Assembly: GCA_964641715.1 (NCBI GenBank)
Contig: CAZXMB010000003.1
Coordinates: 1 to 38,735, forward strand
Direction: 5' to 3'
Origin: an uncultured Syntrophaceae bacterium
GTDB lineage: Bacteria > Desulfobacterota > BSN033 > UBA1163
Length of the DNA: 38,735 nucleotides
Shown here one piece after another: positions 27,740-33,688 of this stretch; the first letter of the stretch is position 1, and each line of letters opens with the position of its first letter. The position numbers and the translations under genes are program-made. The notes below the pieces were generated by a model that saw nothing but the letters and a program-made list of their open reading frames with translations, searched no databases and was not told the DNA's origin.

Positions 27740-30700
27740 ATGATGAAGAAACTCTACCTGGGAATGGACATTGGTTCGGTCAGTGCCAATACCGTGATCA
27801 TGAACGATCAGGGAGAAGTGCTGGAAGAGCATTACACGCGGATCAAAGGTCAGCCTCTTCAGACGGTCCAGAGGATCCTGGAAGAAATCCTCAGCAGGAT
27901 TCCACCTGATCAATTTCACTCCCTCTCTTTTACAGGGGTAGGAGGAAAACTGATCTCCGATCTTTTGGACGGAAATTTTATCAATGAGATCATTGCCCAG
28001 GCAAAGGCGGTCCAATCTCTTTATCCCAAGATCCGAACGATCATCGATATCGGAGGAGAGGATTCCAAACTGATCTTCCTCGAAGAGGAGAATGGTCATC
28101 TTAAGATCAGCGATTTCTCGATGAATACCCTCTGTGCAGCCGGCACCGGCTCCTTTTTGGATCAGCAAGCCAGCCGATTGGGTCTGACCATTGAGGAGTT
28201 TGGCCAGCTTGCCCTCCGGTCCAAGAACCCGCCCCGTATTGCAGGGCGATGCAGTGTCTTTGCGAAATCGGACATGATTCACCTTCAACAGATCGCCACA
28301 CCGGATTACGATATCGTTGCCGGTCTTTGTTTCGCCCTTGCCAGAAATTTTAAGAGCAATATCGGGAAGGGGAAAGTCTTTGTCAAACCCATTTCCTTTC
28401 AAGGGGGAGTGGCAGCGAATGTGGGGATGAGAAAGGCATTCCAGGAGGTCCTGGAGCTTTCAGATGGTGAGCTTACCATTCCGGAACATTTTGCCTCTAT
28501 GGGAGCCATCGGTGCCGTGATGGTGTCCAGGGAGAGCAAAGAGATCAAGACCATCCGGAGATTGGATCTCACCCCGCTGAAGGATTACCTTCAACATCAT
28601 CAGGAGAGAGAAAGGCCGCTCAAACAACTCTGTCTCTCTTCAAATCACTTATCACCCTCACCCCTACCCTCTCTCATAAAGGAAGAGGGGGTAAGAAGTG
28701 ATTTTCCCATCAAAGGAGAGGTGGGAGAAAGGGTCTCTTCCAATAAGGGAGGGGGTGAAAAATCGGGAAAGATCGAGGCCTACCTTGGCCTGGATGTCGG
28801 TTCCATTAGCACCAACCTCGTGGTGATTGGTAAGGATAAAAAAGTCCTTTCAAAACGTTATCTCATGACGGCCGGTAGACCCATCGAAGCCGTTCGCACA
28901 GGTCTCCAGGAAATCGGTGAGGAAATCGGAAACCGTGTGGAGATCAAAGGGGTGGGGACCACGGGTTCCGGCCGCTACCTCACTGCCGATTTTGTAGGTG
29001 CGGATTTGGTCCGAAATGAGATCACGGCACAGGCAACCGCCGCAGTCGAGATTGATCCCGGTGTGGATACGATCTTTGAGATCGGTGGCCAGGATTCCAA
29101 GTATATCAGCCTCGACAGCGGTGTGGTCATCGATTTTGAAATGAACAAGGTCTGTGCCGCCGGGACAGGCTCTTTTTTAGAGGAGCAGGCGGAGAAACTC
29201 GATATCTCCATCAAAGAGGAATTCGGATCCCTTGCCCTCTCTTCGGAGAAACCGGTCAGGATGGGTGAACGATGTACGGTCTTCATCGAATCTGATCTGG
29301 TCCATCACCAGCAGAGAGGTGCGAGAAAGGACGATCTGGTTGCGGGCCTGAGTTATTCCATCGTCCAAAATTATCTCAACCGGGTGGTGGGAGACCGCCG
29401 TATCGGGAACCGGATCTTTTTCCAGGGGGGAACAGCCTTCAATAAAGGGGTGGTGGCGGCCTTCGAAAGCGTTCTCGGAAAAGAGGTGGTCGTCCCTGAA
29501 AATCATGATGTGACAGGAGCGATTGGCGTCGCCATCCTGGCCATGGAAGAACGGACCTGGGAACGATCGAGTTTCAAGGGATTTGATCTCAGCCACCGCC
29601 GCTATGAACATTCCTCCTTTGAATGCAAGGGTTGTCCCAATCTCTGCCTCATCCGAAAGGTGAGCGTTGAAGGGGAGAAACCTCTCTTTTATGGAAGCCG
29701 ATGCGAGAAGTATGATGTCATTAAAAGGACAAAAGGCTCGGACCTACCCGACCTTTTCGGGGAGAGAGAGAAGATGCTCTTCGCCCCTTATGGCGGAGAG
29801 GAGCATCTTTCTGTCCATGCTCCGGAGATTGGTATTCCCGGAATTCTTTTTTTCCACGAGATGTTTCCTTTCTGGAAGGCCTTCTTTACCGAATTGGGGT
29901 ATCGGGTGGTTCTTTCCGATCCCACCCATAAGGAGCTGATTCGAAAAGGAGTGGAGAATGTCGTTGCAGAGACCTGTTTTCCGATCAAGGTGAGTCATGG
30001 ACATGTCCTGAACCTGCTGGAGAAGGGGGTCAAGAAAATTTTTCTGCCGAGTATCGTGAACCTCAAATCCTCCCATCCGGAGATCCCCACGAATACCGCT
30101 TGCCCTTATGCCCAGGCCTTTCCTTATGCGGTCCATTCCTCCATCGATTTTAAAAAGGACGGAGCGGAGATCCTGCAACCCATCCTCCATTTTGGTTTTG
30201 GAAGAAATACCCTGGAGAAGGAACTGATCGATTTTGGAGGATCCCTCCGCAGGGGATCGAAGCGTGTAAGGATGGCCCTTGAAAAGGCTGAAAAATTTCA
30301 GGCTCTATTCTACCAATCCCTCCTCAACCGGGGAAAGGAGATTCTGGATCGGATCGGACGAAACGAGAAGGCCATGGTCATTGTGGGAAGACCTTACAAT
30401 TCCTGCGATTCAGGAGTCAACCTCGAGATTCCAAAGAAACTGAGGGACCTGGGAGTTCTTGCCATTCCCATGGATTTTCTGCCCCTGGAATCGGTCAAAC
30501 CTACTTCCGAGATCCGGGAGATGTACTGGAGGTACGGTCAGAGGATACTCTCGGCAGGGAAGATTATCAATGAGGACCCCAGGCTTTATGCAGTCTATAT
30601 CACCAATTTCGGGTGCGGTCCGGATTCCTTCATCAGCCACTTCTTCAGGGATCTCTCCAAGGAGAAACCCTACCTTCAGCTGGAGATTGACGAACATAGC

Positions 30701-32005
30701 GCAGATGCAGGAGCCATTACGCGATGCGAGGCCTTTTTGGATAGCCTGAAGAATGTCAAGGCCACAACAGTTCCTTTTTTTGAAAAAGAGAAGCCGAAGA
30801 CCGACCGGACCAAGAAAATCTACATCCCCTATATGTGTGACCATTCCTTTGCAGTGGCTTCTGCGTTTCAGGCCTGCGGGGTGGAGGCGGACGTCTTTCC
30901 TGAATCGGATGAGGAGACGCTCTACTGGGGAAGAAAGCTCACCTCCGGAAAAGAGTGTTATCCCTGCATCCTGACCACAGGGGATATGGTGAAGCTTCTC
31001 AAGGACCCCAATTTCGATCACCAAAGAGCCGCCTTCTTCATGCCCTCTGGAAACGGTCCCTGTCGTTTCGGACAGTATCATCGCTTTCACCGTCTCGTTC
31101 TGGATGATCTGGGTTTTAAACATGTCCCCATCTATTCACCCAATCAGGACGAGACCCTTTATAGCGATTTGGGGATCATAGGTTCACAATTTACCCGGCT
31201 GGGATGGCAGGGGATTGTGGCGGTCGATCTTTTAATGAAGAAACTTCTCGAGACCCGCCCCTATGAGAAGAGAAAAGGAGAGGCCGACCGGGTTTATCAA
31301 AGGGCATTGAAAGGGATTTGCGAGACGATCCGGCATGGAGGGGAGCTTGATAAGGCTCTTGAGGAGGGCCTGAAGGAGTTTAACCGGATCGAGGTGGAGG
31401 GGCTCAGGAGCAAGCCCCTGATCGGAATTGTGGGAGAGATCTTTGTCCGGCTCAATCGATTTGCCAATGAGGATGTCATCCGGAAGATTGAACGGTTTGG
31501 GGGGGAGGCATGGATTGCACCCCTTACCGAGTGGATTCTTTATGTCAATACCATCTCCAAGGAAAGAAGTCTCAGGAAGAAGTCCTTTTCGAACCTCCTG
31601 AAGGTGTTTCTCACAGACTACTATCAGAAAAAGGATGAGCACCGTCTGGAAAGGATCTTTAAGGGCTCTCTCAGGAACCCCGGAGAACCCGGAACAAAAA
31701 CGATCTTTAAGAAAGCCAGACCCTATCTCGATTCATCCTTTGAGGGGGAAGCCATCCTTTCAGTTGGGAAGACGATCGACTTTGCCGGAAGAGGGGCAAG
31801 CGGGATCGTCAATATCATGCCCTTTACCTGTATGCCCGGTACGGTTGTCAGCGCCCTTCTAAAGAGATACCGGGAAGAACATAATAACATTCCCATCCTC
31901 AACATGGCCTACGATGGACAGGAACAGACTAACACACTGACCCGCCTTGAGGCCTTCATGCATCAGGCCAAAGAGTTTCATAATAGAAACTCAAAAAGAC
32001 CCTAA
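27740..32005 (+). CDS. Fusion protein: two BcrAD/BadFG (HgdC-type) activase ATPase modules plus a 2-hydroxyacyl-CoA dehydratase-like (DUF2229/HgdAB-like) region
   Basis: Module 1: LGMDIGSVSAN, LCAAGTGSFLDQQA, CSVFAKSD. Module 2: LGLDVGSISTN, VCAAGTGSFLEEQA, CTVFIESD. Then the Cys motif CKGCPNLC..C, then about 750 aa with ETCFPIK, NFGCGPD and MPFTCMPG blocks. Confidence 0.85.
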   Translation: MMKKLYLGMDIGSVSANTVIMNDQGEVLEEHYTRIKGQPLQTVQRILEEILSRIPPDQFHSLSFTGVGGKLISDLLDGNFINEIIAQAKAVQSLYPKIRTIIDIGGEDSKLIFLEEENGHLKISDFSMNTLCAAGTGSFLDQQASRLGLTIEEFGQLALRSKNPPRIAGRCSVFAKSDMIHLQQIATPDYDIVAGLCFALARNFKSNIGKGKVFVKPISFQGGVAANVGMRKAFQEVLELSDGELTIPEHFASMGAIGAVMVSRESKEIKTIRRLDLTPLKDYLQHHQERERPLKQLCLSSNHLSPSPLPSLIKEEGVRSDFPIKGEVGERVSSNKGGGEKSGKIEAYLGLDVGSISTNLVVIGKDKKVLSKRYLMTAGRPIEAVRTGLQEIGEEIGNRVEIKGVGTTGSGRYLTADFVGADLVRNEITAQATAAVEIDPGVDTIFEIGGQDSKYISLDSGVVIDFEMNKVCAAGTGSFLEEQAEKLDISIKEEFGSLALSSEKPVRMGERCTVFIESDLVHHQQRGARKDDLVAGLSYSIVQNYLNRVVGDRRIGNRIFFQGGTAFNKGVVAAFESVLGKEVVVPENHDVTGAIGVAILAMEERTWERSSFKGFDLSHRRYEHSSFECKGCPNLCLIRKVSVEGEKPLFYGSRCEKYDVIKRTKGSDLPDLFGEREKMLFAPYGGEEHLSVHAPEIGIPGILFFHEMFPFWKAFFTELGYRVVLSDPTHKELIRKGVENVVAETCFPIKVSHGHVLNLLEKGVKKIFLPSIVNLKSSHPEIPTNTACPYAQAFPYAVHSSIDFKKDGAEILQPILHFGFGRNTLEKELIDFGGSLRRGSKRVRMALEKAEKFQALFYQSLLNRGKEILDRIGRNEKAMVIVGRPYNSCDSGVNLEIPKKLRDLGVLAIPMDFLPLESVKPTSEIREMYWRYGQRILSAGKIINEDPRLYAVYITNFGCGPDSFISHFFRDLSKEKPYLQLEIDEHSADAGAITRCEAFLDSLKNVKATTVPFFEKEKPKTDRTKKIYIPYMCDHSFAVASAFQACGVEADVFPESDEETLYWGRKLTSGKECYPCILTTGDMVKLLKDPNFDHQRAAFFMPSGNGPCRFGQYHRFHRLVLDDLGFKHVPIYSPNQDETLYSDLGIIGSQFTRLGWQGIVAVDLLMKKLLETRPYEKRKGEADRVYQRALKGICETIRHGGELDKALEEGLKEFNRIEVEGLRSKPLIGIVGEIFVRLNRFANEDVIRKIERFGGEAWIAPLTEWILYVNTISKERSLRKKSFSNLLKVFLTDYYQKKDEHRLERIFKGSLRNPGEPGTKTIFKKARPYLDSSFEGEAILSVGKTIDFAGRGASGIVNIMPFTCMPGTVVSALLKRYREEHNNIPILNMAYDGQEQTNTLTRLEAFMHQAKEFHNRNSKRP
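28642..28704. repeat. 63-nt palindromic element lying in frame in the inter-ATPase linker
   Basis: The outer 9-bp arms AAATCACTT/AAGTGATTT pair (28642-50 with 28696-704). The inner 10-bp stem is TACCCTCTCT/AGAGGGGGTA (one G-U pair). Length is 21 codons. It encodes the low-complexity stretch NHLSPSPLPSLIKEEGVRSDF. Confidence 0.55.
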
Positions 32006-32065
32006 CAGGTTAAATTAAAAGAAAAATTTTTTTCATAAGACTTTGTTAAAAAAATCACCTTTCTA

Positions 32066-32094
32066 TTGAAATTCCTATTTTCAAGTGATATAAG
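32066..32094 (+). promoter_or_regulatory. Sigma70-like promoter upstream of oadG (TTGAAA-N17-TATAAG)
   Basis: Hexamers and 17-nt spacing read directly; 37 nt upstream of ATG 32131. Confidence 0.4.
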
Positions 32095-32130
32095 AAAAAG
32101 GTTTTTATTTCGATTGAGGAGGATTTCTGT

Positions 32131-32265
32131 ATGGACAATTGGACATTCGGGGTCACCATGGTTGTCGTTGGAATGGGAGGAACCCTCTTAACCCTTTGGA
32201 TATTGAGTCTTATCATGAGCGCTCTCGAGAAGCTCTTCCCTTTTAAAAAGGAAGAGGGTAAATAG
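32131..32265 (+). CDS. oadG: Na+-translocating decarboxylase gamma subunit (OadG-like), 44 aa; below the ORF-track size cut-off
   Basis: MDNWTFGVTMVVVGMGGTLLTLWILSLIMSALEKLFPFKKEEGK: a single TM helix with the GMG.. pattern of OadG. GAGGAGG RBS. Sits directly upstream of the beta subunit. Confidence 0.65.
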   Translation: MDNWTFGVTMVVVGMGGTLLTLWILSLIMSALEKLFPFKKEEGK

Positions 32266-32289
32266 GTTTATTGAAGGAGGAATGGAGAC

Positions 32290-33429
32290 ATGTTAGATGC
32301 GATTCAAGGCGGGTTGACCGGACTGATTGCAGGATTTTTACATCTCCACTGGTCTAATCCGGTCATGATTGTCGTTGGTTTGATTCTTCTCTACCTTGGG
32401 ATTAAGAAGGATGTTGAACCTGTCCTCCTTATCCCTATTGGATTTGGATGCATCCTGGTGAATATTCCTTTGGCCGGGCTTATGGAGAAAGAGGGCTTCC
32501 TGAGGATCATCTATGAGGCAGGGATCGTGACAGAGCTTTTCCCGCTTCTCATCTTCGTGGGAATCGGAGCGATGACCGATTTCGGTCCCCTGCTTGAGAA
32601 CCCGAAGATCTTTCTTCTCGGGGCTGCAGGACAGTTCGGGATCTTCTTAACCCTGGCCTTGGCTTTAGTCCTGGGTTTTTCTAAATTGGAGGCCGTCTCC
32701 ATCGGGATCATCGGTGCCTGTGATGGTCCTACCGCCATTTACGTCACTTCTCAATATGCCCCTCAGCTCCTGGGAGCTGTTTCTGTGGCTGCCTATTGTT
32801 ATATGTCCCTTGTCCCGTTGATTCAACCTCCTATCATGAGGGCGTTGACGACCAAAGAAGAAAAGGTGATCAATATGGGAACGGCGAAGAAACCCGTTTC
32901 AAAGACAACCAAACTTCTTTTTCCTCTGGTGGTTACCGTATTCGGGGGTCTCATCGCACCCAAGGGGTTACCCCTGCTGGGAACGATCATGCTCGGGAAT
33001 CTGATGAAGGAATGCGGAGTGGTAAGCCGGCTTACCCGGGCATCCGAAAATGAGATTGCCAATATCGTGACCCTACTTCTGGGAATCTCCATCGGAGCAA
33101 CGATGGATGGAAGGGTCTTCTTGACGCCTCAGACTCTCATCATCCTGGTCCTCGGTTTTGTGGCCATCTGTCTGGATACTGCCTGTGGCATCCTTTTCGG
33201 GAAGGTACTGAAGGTGGTGACCGGCGGGAAGGTCAACCCCCTTATCGGTGCCGCGGGTATCTCCGCCTATCCCATGTCCGCACGGGTGGTTCAGAAGGAG
33301 GGACAGAAATACAATAAAAAGAATTACCTCCTCATGCATGCCATGGGAGCCAACACCGGTGGACAGGTCGGCTCGGTCATGGCCGCCGCTGTCATGCTTT
33401 CAATCCTGAAAGGGATGGGAGTAATTTAA
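32290..33429 (+). CDS. oadB: Na+-translocating oxaloacetate/methylmalonyl-CoA/glutaconyl-CoA decarboxylase beta subunit
   Basis: 379-aa polytopic protein. EPVLLIPIGFG, IGACDGPTAIY, AAGISAYPMSARV and GANTGGQ are typical OadB/GcdB/MmdB blocks. Confidence 0.9.
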   Translation: MLDAIQGGLTGLIAGFLHLHWSNPVMIVVGLILLYLGIKKDVEPVLLIPIGFGCILVNIPLAGLMEKEGFLRIIYEAGIVTELFPLLIFVGIGAMTDFGPLLENPKIFLLGAAGQFGIFLTLALALVLGFSKLEAVSIGIIGACDGPTAIYVTSQYAPQLLGAVSVAAYCYMSLVPLIQPPIMRALTTKEEKVINMGTAKKPVSKTTKLLFPLVVTVFGGLIAPKGLPLLGTIMLGNLMKECGVVSRLTRASENEIANIVTLLLGISIGATMDGRVFLTPQTLIILVLGFVAICLDTACGILFGKVLKVVTGGKVNPLIGAAGISAYPMSARVVQKEGQKYNKKNYLLMHAMGANTGGQVGSVMAAAVMLSILKGMGVI

Positions 33430-33549: not shown

Positions 33550-33688
33550 CCCAAATTCCGATTTAGAAATTGTCATTGCGAGGGAACCGAAGCAATCACG
33601 CCATTTCCAATGAGATTGCCACGCACCTTGCAGGTGCTCGCAATGACCGGATGGGAAAAGGGTTTCGGTTTCTAAATCGGAATTTGGG
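33550..33688. repeat. 139-nt compound palindromic element (GTCATTGCGAG family)
   Basis: Perfect 20-bp terminal inverted repeat CCCAAATTCCGATTTAGAAA / TTTCTAAATCGGAATTTGGG, plus an inner inverted repeat GTCATTGCGAG / CTCGCAATGAC. Confidence 0.7.

Follow-up and report, generated by a model that had tools for sequence, protein, structure and literature searches.

A predicted PlsA/Ger-type ether-lipid synthase fusion and a small-oadG/oadB pair, probably two unrelated units, in an uncultured Syntrophaceae bacterium

The window analysed here, a stretch of 38,735 nt, is contig C3 (CAZXMB010000003.1) of a metagenome-assembled genome (MAG) of an uncultured Syntrophaceae bacterium (2.86 Mb in 238 contigs, 93% complete). 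On its forward strand lie a gene for a 1421-residue fusion of activase and dehydratase-like modules and, downstream, a short oadG-like gene and an oadB gene. The three genes are confirmed at the coordinates given below, with profile hidden Markov model scores that are strong and far above chance. We consider it probable that they constitute two unrelated, separately transcribed units, i.e., a single-chain PlsA/Ger-type ether-lipid synthase and the oadG-small/oadB membrane module of a biotin-dependent Na+ decarboxylase. The features of the locus are as follows.

27740-32005, + strand: predicted PlsA/Ger-type ether-lipid synthase gene, single chain, 1421 residues (open reading frame, Pfam and architecture)
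27752-28525, + strand: activase (ASKHA ATPase) module 1, with C132 and C171 (first PF01869/TIGR00241 stretch; boundaries approximate, an estimate)
28526-28783, + strand: variable low-complexity linker between the ATPase modules (alignment with nine close homologues)
28784-29542, + strand: activase module 2, with C472 and C512 (best PF01869 stretch, residues 349-601)
29624-29704, + strand: CxxCxxxC...C motif (C629, C632, C636, C655), four cysteines invariant in 14 + 67 homologues
29828-30478, + strand: DUF2229 "reduction" domain, first BCR/HAD-like half, with invariant C746 and C788 (PF09989)
30479-32002, + strand: remaining C-terminal part, second BCR/HAD/DCCP-like half included, with invariant C959, C1073, C1108 and C1364 (fold model)
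32066-32094, + strand: promoter-like site upstream of oadG, TTGAAA (32066-32071), 17-nt spacer, TG-n-TATAAG (32086-32094) (read from the sequence)
32131-32265, + strand: oadG-related small subunit, 44 residues (NF040909; GAGGAGG Shine-Dalgarno)
32290-33429, + strand: oadB/gcdB-type carboxybiotin decarboxylase/Na+ pump beta subunit, 379 residues (PF03977, TIGR01109)

The motifs LCAAGTGSF, CSVFAKSD, VCAAGTGSF, CTVFIESD and CKGCPNLC are all legible in the translation of 27740-32005. A first-pass annotation of this DNA had read the first four as belonging to two complete activase modules, each with both cluster cysteines, and had proposed Pfam parsing as a check. That parsing returned PF01869 (BcrAD_BadFG) in two stretches (E 5.5e-78) and PF09989 (DUF2229) after both activation domains, at residues 697-913 (E 3.9e-66), while the NCBIfam model TIGR00241 ("acyl-CoA dehydratase activase") likewise matched two stretches (316 bits). 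Cysteine conservation was assessed in 14 diverse full-length homologues and in the C-terminal halves of 67 homologues, together drawn from more than 12 phyla, and 14 cysteines of the fusion proved invariant (C132, C171, C472, C512, C629, C632, C636, C655, C746, C788, C959, C1073, C1108 and C1364). C132/C171 and C472/C512, invariant in the 14 diverse homologues, are distributed two per ATPase module and lie 39-40 residues apart, in agreement with the spacing of Cys127/Cys166, which we take to be the cluster-ligand pair of HgdC. The CxxCxxxC...C motif is a probable extra metal or Fe-S site. Between the ATPase modules, the linker varies in length among the nine close homologues aligned and is ~20-25 residues longer here than in most of them; the extra low-complexity stretch overlaps a palindromic 63-nt segment (window 28642-28704).

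A sequence search of the PDB matched the ATPase modules to HadI (4EHT), HgdC (1HUX), MbdQ/MbdP (9GAI, 9GAI_D) and DCCP-R (7YYL_E), and gave no sequence-level match for the catalytic half. Residues 620-1421 were therefore modelled with AlphaFold2, using the alignment of 67 sequences as input, and the resulting model is confident (pLDDT 90.4, pTM 0.88). With this model as query, the top 11 Foldseek matches in the PDB (probability 1.00) were all catalytic subunits of DCCP, BzdNO, MbdONPQ or HadBC, each spanning approximately half of the model. The invariant cysteines, the structure matches of the ATPases and the fold matches together mean that the anatomy proposed in the first-pass annotation was right, including its placing of the CKGCPNLC..C motif ahead of an HgdAB/DUF2229-type scaffold, here ~800 residues. 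By sequence and fold model, the fusion is a predicted intramolecular activase pseudo-dimer joined to a BCR/HAD/DCCP-type catalytic pair.

The activases by sequence, and the C-terminal 800 residues by fold, resemble those of HgdAB/HgdC, HadBC/HadI, BzdNOPQ, MbdONPQ and DCCP/DCCP-R, and the logic shared with Hgd, Had, class I benzoyl-CoA reductases and DCCP is the ATP-driven injection of low-potential electrons. Each module carries two cluster cysteines, as do the HgdC, HadI and BcrAD activases, whereas the "dimer" lies here within one chain. Indeed, the fusion differs from all of these systems in having every part in a single chain, and the PlsA/Ger family in acting on a membrane lipid ester rather than on an acyl-CoA or small molecule. 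HgdAB and HadBC proper also differ in their separate alpha and beta subunits and in their PF06050 (HGD-D) domain, for which Pfam gave no match in the fusion at E<=0.01; no genes for a CoA-transferase or a 2-hydroxyacid pathway, the companions of Hgd and Had, were found within the window.

Database searches recovered hundreds of ~1400-residue proteins at >80% (80-85%) identity from Syntrophaceae, "Deltaproteobacteria" and Thermodesulfobacteriota MAGs, labelled only "CoA activase" or "CoA-substrate-specific enzyme activase". With the C-terminal 782 residues as query, 1118 clusters (at 50% identity) were matched at E<1e-30; full-length matches were nearly all ~1400 residues with the same layout, and many matches were shorter (~450-1100 residues), those near 800 residues being read as probable split forms without ATPases. 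Homologues in other phyla share 35-60% identity with the fusion, and the overall length and 14 cysteines are kept from Syntrophaceae to Bacteroidales, Planctomycetota and Armatimonadota. Nearly all relatives have one copy of the full-length fusion, which was seen in 35 of 41 genomes. The source genome also contains DUF2229 matches at C13:5250-7392 and C63:14019-15897, in tandem open reading frames (ORFs) of 230-384 residues; they represent paralogous BCR/HAD-like systems of the split kind, separate from the fusion, and relatives contain comparable clusters.

A wider scan of named genomes collected 80 fusion loci from more than 12 phyla, and no general operon partner of the fusion emerged among them; the largest neighbour cluster was a radical-SAM-like gene at seven loci. 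This gene (~310-335 residues) lies directly upstream of the fusion and on the same strand at the Desulfobacterota loci L016, L017, L018, L021, L046 and L062. An RNase G/E-like gene lies directly downstream in L016, L025 and L046, with gaps of 10-56 nt.

Where the first-pass annotation had left the substrate of this fusion family blank, architecture and length point to the published PlsA/Ger family of ether-lipid synthases. This family converts sn-1 lipid esters to ethers, as seen by heterologous expression (PMC13159169, PMC12838417). In Irimajiri et al. (2025, PMC12838417), (i) the two-gene PlsA/PlsR of Clostridium perfringens is described as an anaerobic plasmalogen synthase (crediting Jackson et al. 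2021), (ii) single-gene PlsA, of 4248-4920 bp, is described from Enterococcus faecalis, Lactococcus cremoris and Bifidobacterium longum subsp. suis, and (iii) plasmalogens are made by recombinant Escherichia coli with the L. cremoris or B. longum subsp. suis PlsA. In the published PlsA/PlsR chemistry, the sn-1 ester takes up two electrons one at a time and is then protonated and dehydrated. Glycerol ester reductase (Ger, a "modified PlsA") from Thermotoga maritima (Tmari_0479) and Desulfatibacillum alkenivorans (SHJ90043) was active when expressed in E. coli (Sahonero-Canavesi et al. 2022, Sci Adv, PMC13159169). Its architecture comprises two PF01869 domains and PF09989 (the "BBD" core), then small HGD-D/DUF2229 segments (PMC13159169). 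The published criterion for Ger homologues is E<=1e-50 and >=30% coverage to T. maritima Ger, and the verified sequences of the family are AGL49404 (T. maritima Ger), SHJ90043, Q835P9 (E. faecalis) and Q8XL47/Q8XL48 (C. perfringens).

At 4266 bp, the fusion gene falls within the range of single-gene PlsA, and its BBD core is present. With the two Ger enzymes it shares a single chain, the order of two PF01869 domains then PF09989, C-terminal segments that are BCR/HAD-like by fold and an anaerobic host, which in D. alkenivorans belongs to the phylum of the source organism, Thermodesulfobacteriota. With PlsA/PlsR and single-gene PlsA it shares BCR/HAD-family membership, activase and reduction/dehydration modules and, in the case of the single-gene forms, a comparable gene length; the verified PlsA proteins differ in coming from Bacillota and Actinomycetota. 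On the strength of architecture, length, conserved residues, fold and family continuity, we assign the fusion as a putative ordinary member of the characterized PlsA/Ger family. Its architecture, invariant cysteines and fold were computed here; we infer the substrate and chemistry from the family literature.

In the mechanism thus envisaged, the two ATPase modules would form an activase pseudo-dimer holding one [4Fe-4S] cluster on C132, C171, C472 and C512. ATP hydrolysis would supply low-potential electrons to Fe-S centres in the BCR/HAD/DCCP-like pair fused at the C-terminus, and this pair, by reduction and dehydration, would convert the ester at the sn-1 position of a membrane glycerolipid into an ether. 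Two products may be envisaged, namely a vinyl ether, i.e., a plasmalogen as made by PlsA, and a saturated alkyl ether as made by Ger. We lean mildly towards the alkyl product because the verified enzyme of the same phylum is a Ger. According to a 2026 paper, verified alkyl-ether makers, including D. alkenivorans (Thermodesulfobacteriota), have the two-activation-domain form.

Downstream of the fusion stop codon, a gap of 125 nt leads to oadG-small, as the first-pass annotation had described for its 44-residue OadG-like gene and OadB/GcdB-like neighbour; NF040909, PF03977 and TIGR01109 support both calls. Against NF040909 ("OadG-related small transporter subunit"), a model for proteins of ~37-45 residues encoded directly upstream of an OadB homologue, the 44-residue ORF scores 52.8 bits (cut-off 25) over model positions 1-36 of 37, whereas it falls below the canonical OadG cut-offs of TIGR01195 (19 bits vs 36) and PF04277 (24.1 vs 27). 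It has a single hydrophobic stretch, consistent with one transmembrane helix, and is kept at 64-83% identity in relatives. Canonical OadG/GcdD (~80-106 residues) consists of an N-terminal transmembrane helix, an Ala/Pro linker and a C-terminal alpha-binding region (PMC7145394); the 44-residue subunit differs in having neither the linker nor the alpha-binding region, which tether the soluble head.

From the oadG-small stop codon to the oadB start there are 24 nt. OadB, the only beta-subunit copy in the source genome, matches PF03977 (OAD_beta) at 498.6 bits, TIGR01109 at 441 bits and Salmonella OadB (6IVA) at 339 bits, and D203, Y229, N373, G377, S382 and R389 are all identical in the alignment. 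These residues (Klebsiella/Salmonella numbering) we take to be the functionally essential ones of OadB, a list that is said to come from mutagenesis in the Dimroth laboratory.

The first-pass annotation had also assigned oadG a promoter-like site of its own, and TTGAAA-17-TGnTATAAG is indeed conserved before oadG in three genera (window, L012 and G007); a consensus promoter scanner missed it, the last base of the second hexamer being G. Within this promoter-like region (window 32044-32094), an inverted repeat, ATCAC...GTGAT, surrounds the -35 hexamer, is conserved in the three genera and could be a regulator-binding site. Between oadB and terC lies a long palindromic element (window 33550-33688). 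The other neighbours in the window are TPR and DsbC-like genes on the other strand and, downstream, genes for TerC, PurE, Sua5/TsaC and PLD-like, TatD and NUDIX proteins.

A domain search of the genome placed no carboxyltransferase, PYC_OADA or biotinyl domain on contig C3, which agrees with the earlier observation that the window has no alpha or biotin-carrier gene. The oadGB pair, which had been called orphan, is so by position only: its partners are not adjacent, and candidates lie elsewhere in the genome. These include (i) on C200, a true GcdA that matches Clostridium symbiosum GcdA 3GF3 over its full length at 754 bits, (ii) a 12S/MmdA-like carboxyltransferase on C135, beside methylmalonyl-CoA mutase and MeaB, (iii) an OadA/transcarboxylase-5S-like protein without a biotinyl domain on C1, beside malate dehydrogenase and fumarase, and (iv) a free 71-residue biotinyl domain with an AMKM motif, i.e., a biotin carrier, on C236 (C236:3-2619). 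The carrier gene is divergent from 3-hydroxyacyl-CoA dehydrogenase and thiolase-like genes, an arrangement conserved in relatives; it is followed by housekeeping genes and is conserved in 35 of 41 relatives, many of which have two copies. The first-pass annotation had named, as grounds against its proposal, alpha and carrier genes in a canonical operon elsewhere together with another beta subunit, plus a lack of conserved linkage in other genomes; such genes do lie elsewhere, but neither a canonical operon nor a second beta subunit accompanies them.

Two candidates for a fixed OadB partner were rejected. GcdA is not obligatory, being missing from at least 11 genomes of the source genome's own family (f1) that keep the fusion and oadGB, and the OadA-like gene is not universal, being missing at the threshold used from G004, G005, G006 and G012. 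Genome G004, in which no carboxyltransferase was seen, was discounted as a case of biotin-independent OadB, given that its assembly is fragmented and its congener G022 has these genes; the gaps in G004 are probably assembly gaps. The sister families f2 and f3 have a compact cluster in which a small OadG-like ORF and an oadB gene, its product ~52% identical and from a different clade, are joined by an OadA/5S-like gene (L092 8286-11160 in G031 of f3, with a small ORF of 64 residues, and likewise L093, L094, L099, L100 and L101); the OadA/5S-like gene there has no biotinyl domain and is 75% identical to the source genome's C1:31003-32490.

As in OadABG (Klebsiella, Salmonella, Vibrio), GcdABCD (Acidaminococcus, Clostridium symbiosum) and MmdABCDE (Veillonella), the beta subunit is full length with its functional residues, and the source genome also has a true GcdA and a biotin carrier. 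Here, in contrast, the subunits are spread over at least four contigs rather than placed in a single operon, the gamma/delta-like subunit has only 44 residues, and the biotin carrier is a bare 71-residue domain without an N-terminal anchor. OadG-small and OadB would then be the membrane part of a Na+-translocating decarboxylase with dispersed soluble partners, one beta module probably serving whichever carboxyltransferases are present. A bolder proposal, which we think improbable, is that the single OadB and 44-residue gamma subunit form a common membrane "socket" into which any of several carboxyltransferases could fit, perhaps reversibly. The position of oadGB might then be more than synteny and reflect a joint adjustment of Na+ bioenergetics and of the ion-tightness of the membrane.

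For the synteny comparison, DUF2229 and OAD_beta matches were located in 40 relatives of the source genome. In 18 of the 20 genomes of f1, representing 15 genera, the fusion and oadB share a contig and an orientation, the other two being broken by contig ends. Between the DUF2229 end and the start of oadB there are 1799-2362 nt, the gap between fusion and oadG ranges from tens to ~600 nt, and the block fusion-oadG-oadB-terC-purE is syntenic within f1. None of the 10 genomes of other families in the class or phylum that have both genes shows the adjacency. In the wider scan, 52 loci have at least 2.5 kb of downstream sequence, and OadB follows in two of these (L015, L025), as well as in the truncated locus L012; L012 and L015 are both from the same Syntrophaceae-like group, and L025 has an RNase G gene between fusion and OadB. 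Genome G038 carries the same oadG-small/oadB clade (77% identity) on a contig other than that of its fusion, and the fusion is present without any OadB in the near-complete G029 and G039 and the less complete G040.

Conservation of the linkage between fusion and oadGB therefore holds at the family level only. The first-pass annotation had suggested a functionally linked dehydration-decarboxylation/Na+ module, which this distribution does not support, the adjacency being confined to one family and absent from the sister families and from 50 of the 52 loci. Its analogy with glutamate fermenters fares no better: GcdA is present here, yet at least 11 relatives have the fusion with oadGB and no GcdA. 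Fusion and oadGB appear not to be coupled because the adjacency is family-limited, the spacing varies, terC and purE share the synteny, and oadG has a separate, conserved promoter-like site. The adjacency is best explained as a lineage-specific inherited gene order in one Syntrophaceae-like family, not as a pathway.

At L096 5718-9024 (G002, f1), the fusion is followed by a 44-residue OadG-like ORF and then by two divergent OadB paralogues in tandem. This locus also encodes a 204-residue protein with a C-terminal hydrophobic stretch (a probable transmembrane helix) and an Ala/Pro-rich tail, and then a P-type ATPase gene. Beside oadG-oadB in G038 lies a gene that probably encodes a P-type ATPase, going by visual inspection of the N-terminal residues.

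Several points weigh against reading the locus as an ether-lipid synthase beside an independent decarboxylase module. The fusion was compared with verified PlsA and Ger only through their published descriptions, and a search seeded with a Thermotogaceae MAG homologue (L072) returned matches from Spirochaetota, Bacteroidota and Thermotogota MAGs, with no T. maritima among them. The HGD-D segments of Ger (PF06050) were not detected by Pfam in the fusion at E<=0.01, while a precomputed PF06050 match is present in some homologues at 81-84% identity. The 2026 paper holds that PlsA and Ger are currently indistinguishable by sequence, and ether-lipid synthesis by the source MAG is a prediction from the gene alone; a literature search on ether lipids in Syntrophus gave no relevant paper. 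For the pairing with OadB, no single carboxyltransferase tracks oadGB across the relatives. As to separate transcription, no terminator was called between fusion and oadG, which is compatible with read-through. The adjacency, kept over 15 genera, is also somewhat more persistent than neutral synteny predicts, and in genus g3 (G002, G021) the fusion-adjacent OadB scores as other clades (~50-52% identical in G002). Since genus g5 (G004, G022) has a second divergent OadB in tandem after the window-type copy, these divergent adjacent copies suggest an old tandem oadB array at the fusion-adjacent site, with differential loss.

This persistence lends itself to a very different, and in our view very unlikely, explanation, in which the fusion is a radical (ketyl-type) acyl-CoA dehydratase whose product is decarboxylated by a non-canonical OadGB Na+ pump, all three genes forming one module. 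The shared strand, the missing terminator call and the adjacency across f1, extending to OadB of other clades (G002) and to the distant locus L025, where OadB lies 1.9 kb downstream, would fit such a module, as would a fold within the BCR/HAD superfamily. The characterized PlsA/Ger substrates, however, are membrane glycerolipids and not acyl-CoAs, PlsA/Ger fusions function alone in E. coli per published work, and OadB requires carboxybiotin, which a dehydratase does not supply. A module would also have to accommodate the lack of adjacency in sister families, a phylum-level relative and most wider loci, the relatives that have the fusion without OadB (G029, G039, G040) or the oadG-small/oadB pair apart from it (G038), the variable spacing and oadG's own conserved promoter-like site.

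The remaining alternatives touch one unit each. It is unlikely, though somewhat less so, that the fusion of the Syntrophaceae-like clade has a paralogous function within the PlsA/Ger superfamily, with another ester or carbonyl as substrate; the comparison by description, the 35-60% identity to homologues of other phyla and the reuse of the scaffold in the split DUF2229 systems on C13 and C63 would allow for this, yet a lone full-length copy in 35 of 41 genomes is typical of a housekeeping orthologue, 14 cysteines and length are kept as far as Bacteroidales, Planctomycetota and Armatimonadota, and the verified D. alkenivorans Ger comes from the same phylum. Equally, we see little chance that OadG-small and OadB work without biotin partners, e.g., as a stand-alone Na+ transporter. 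The NCBI name "small transporter subunit" hints at a transporter, and such a role would suit a 44-residue subunit without the linker and alpha-binding tail of canonical OadG/GcdD, the positions of oadGB in f1 and G038 with no alpha or carrier gene adjacent, the lack of a full-length carboxyltransferase in G004 and the P-type ATPase genes nearby in G002 and G038. Against it, every residue presumed necessary for decarboxylating carboxybiotin and for coupling to Na+ is conserved, 35 of 41 relatives have a free biotin carrier, the sister families put the small-G/oadB pair directly beside an OadA-like gene, and G004's congener G022 has carboxyltransferases. An ether-lipid synthase of the PlsA/Ger type, next to but separate from the membrane module of a biotin-dependent Na+ decarboxylase, is the reading that we retain.

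Ultimately, the fusion and oadGB are each ordinary members of known families, and the principal outcome is a correction: ~1400-residue "activase" fusions have been assigned to anaerobic ether-lipid and plasmalogen synthesis since 2021-2022, databases still list them as activases, and to describe their substrate as unknown is out of date. For the Na+ bioenergetics of syntrophs, the scattered decarboxylase genes and their shortened gamma subunit offer a modest curiosity. More broadly, presence of the fusion gene would predict a capacity for ether-lipid synthesis in uncultured Syntrophaceae-like bacteria, and this predicted capacity may bear on alkyl-glycerol ether biomarkers and those of the branched glycerol dialkyl glycerol tetraether (brGDGT) type in anoxic settings.

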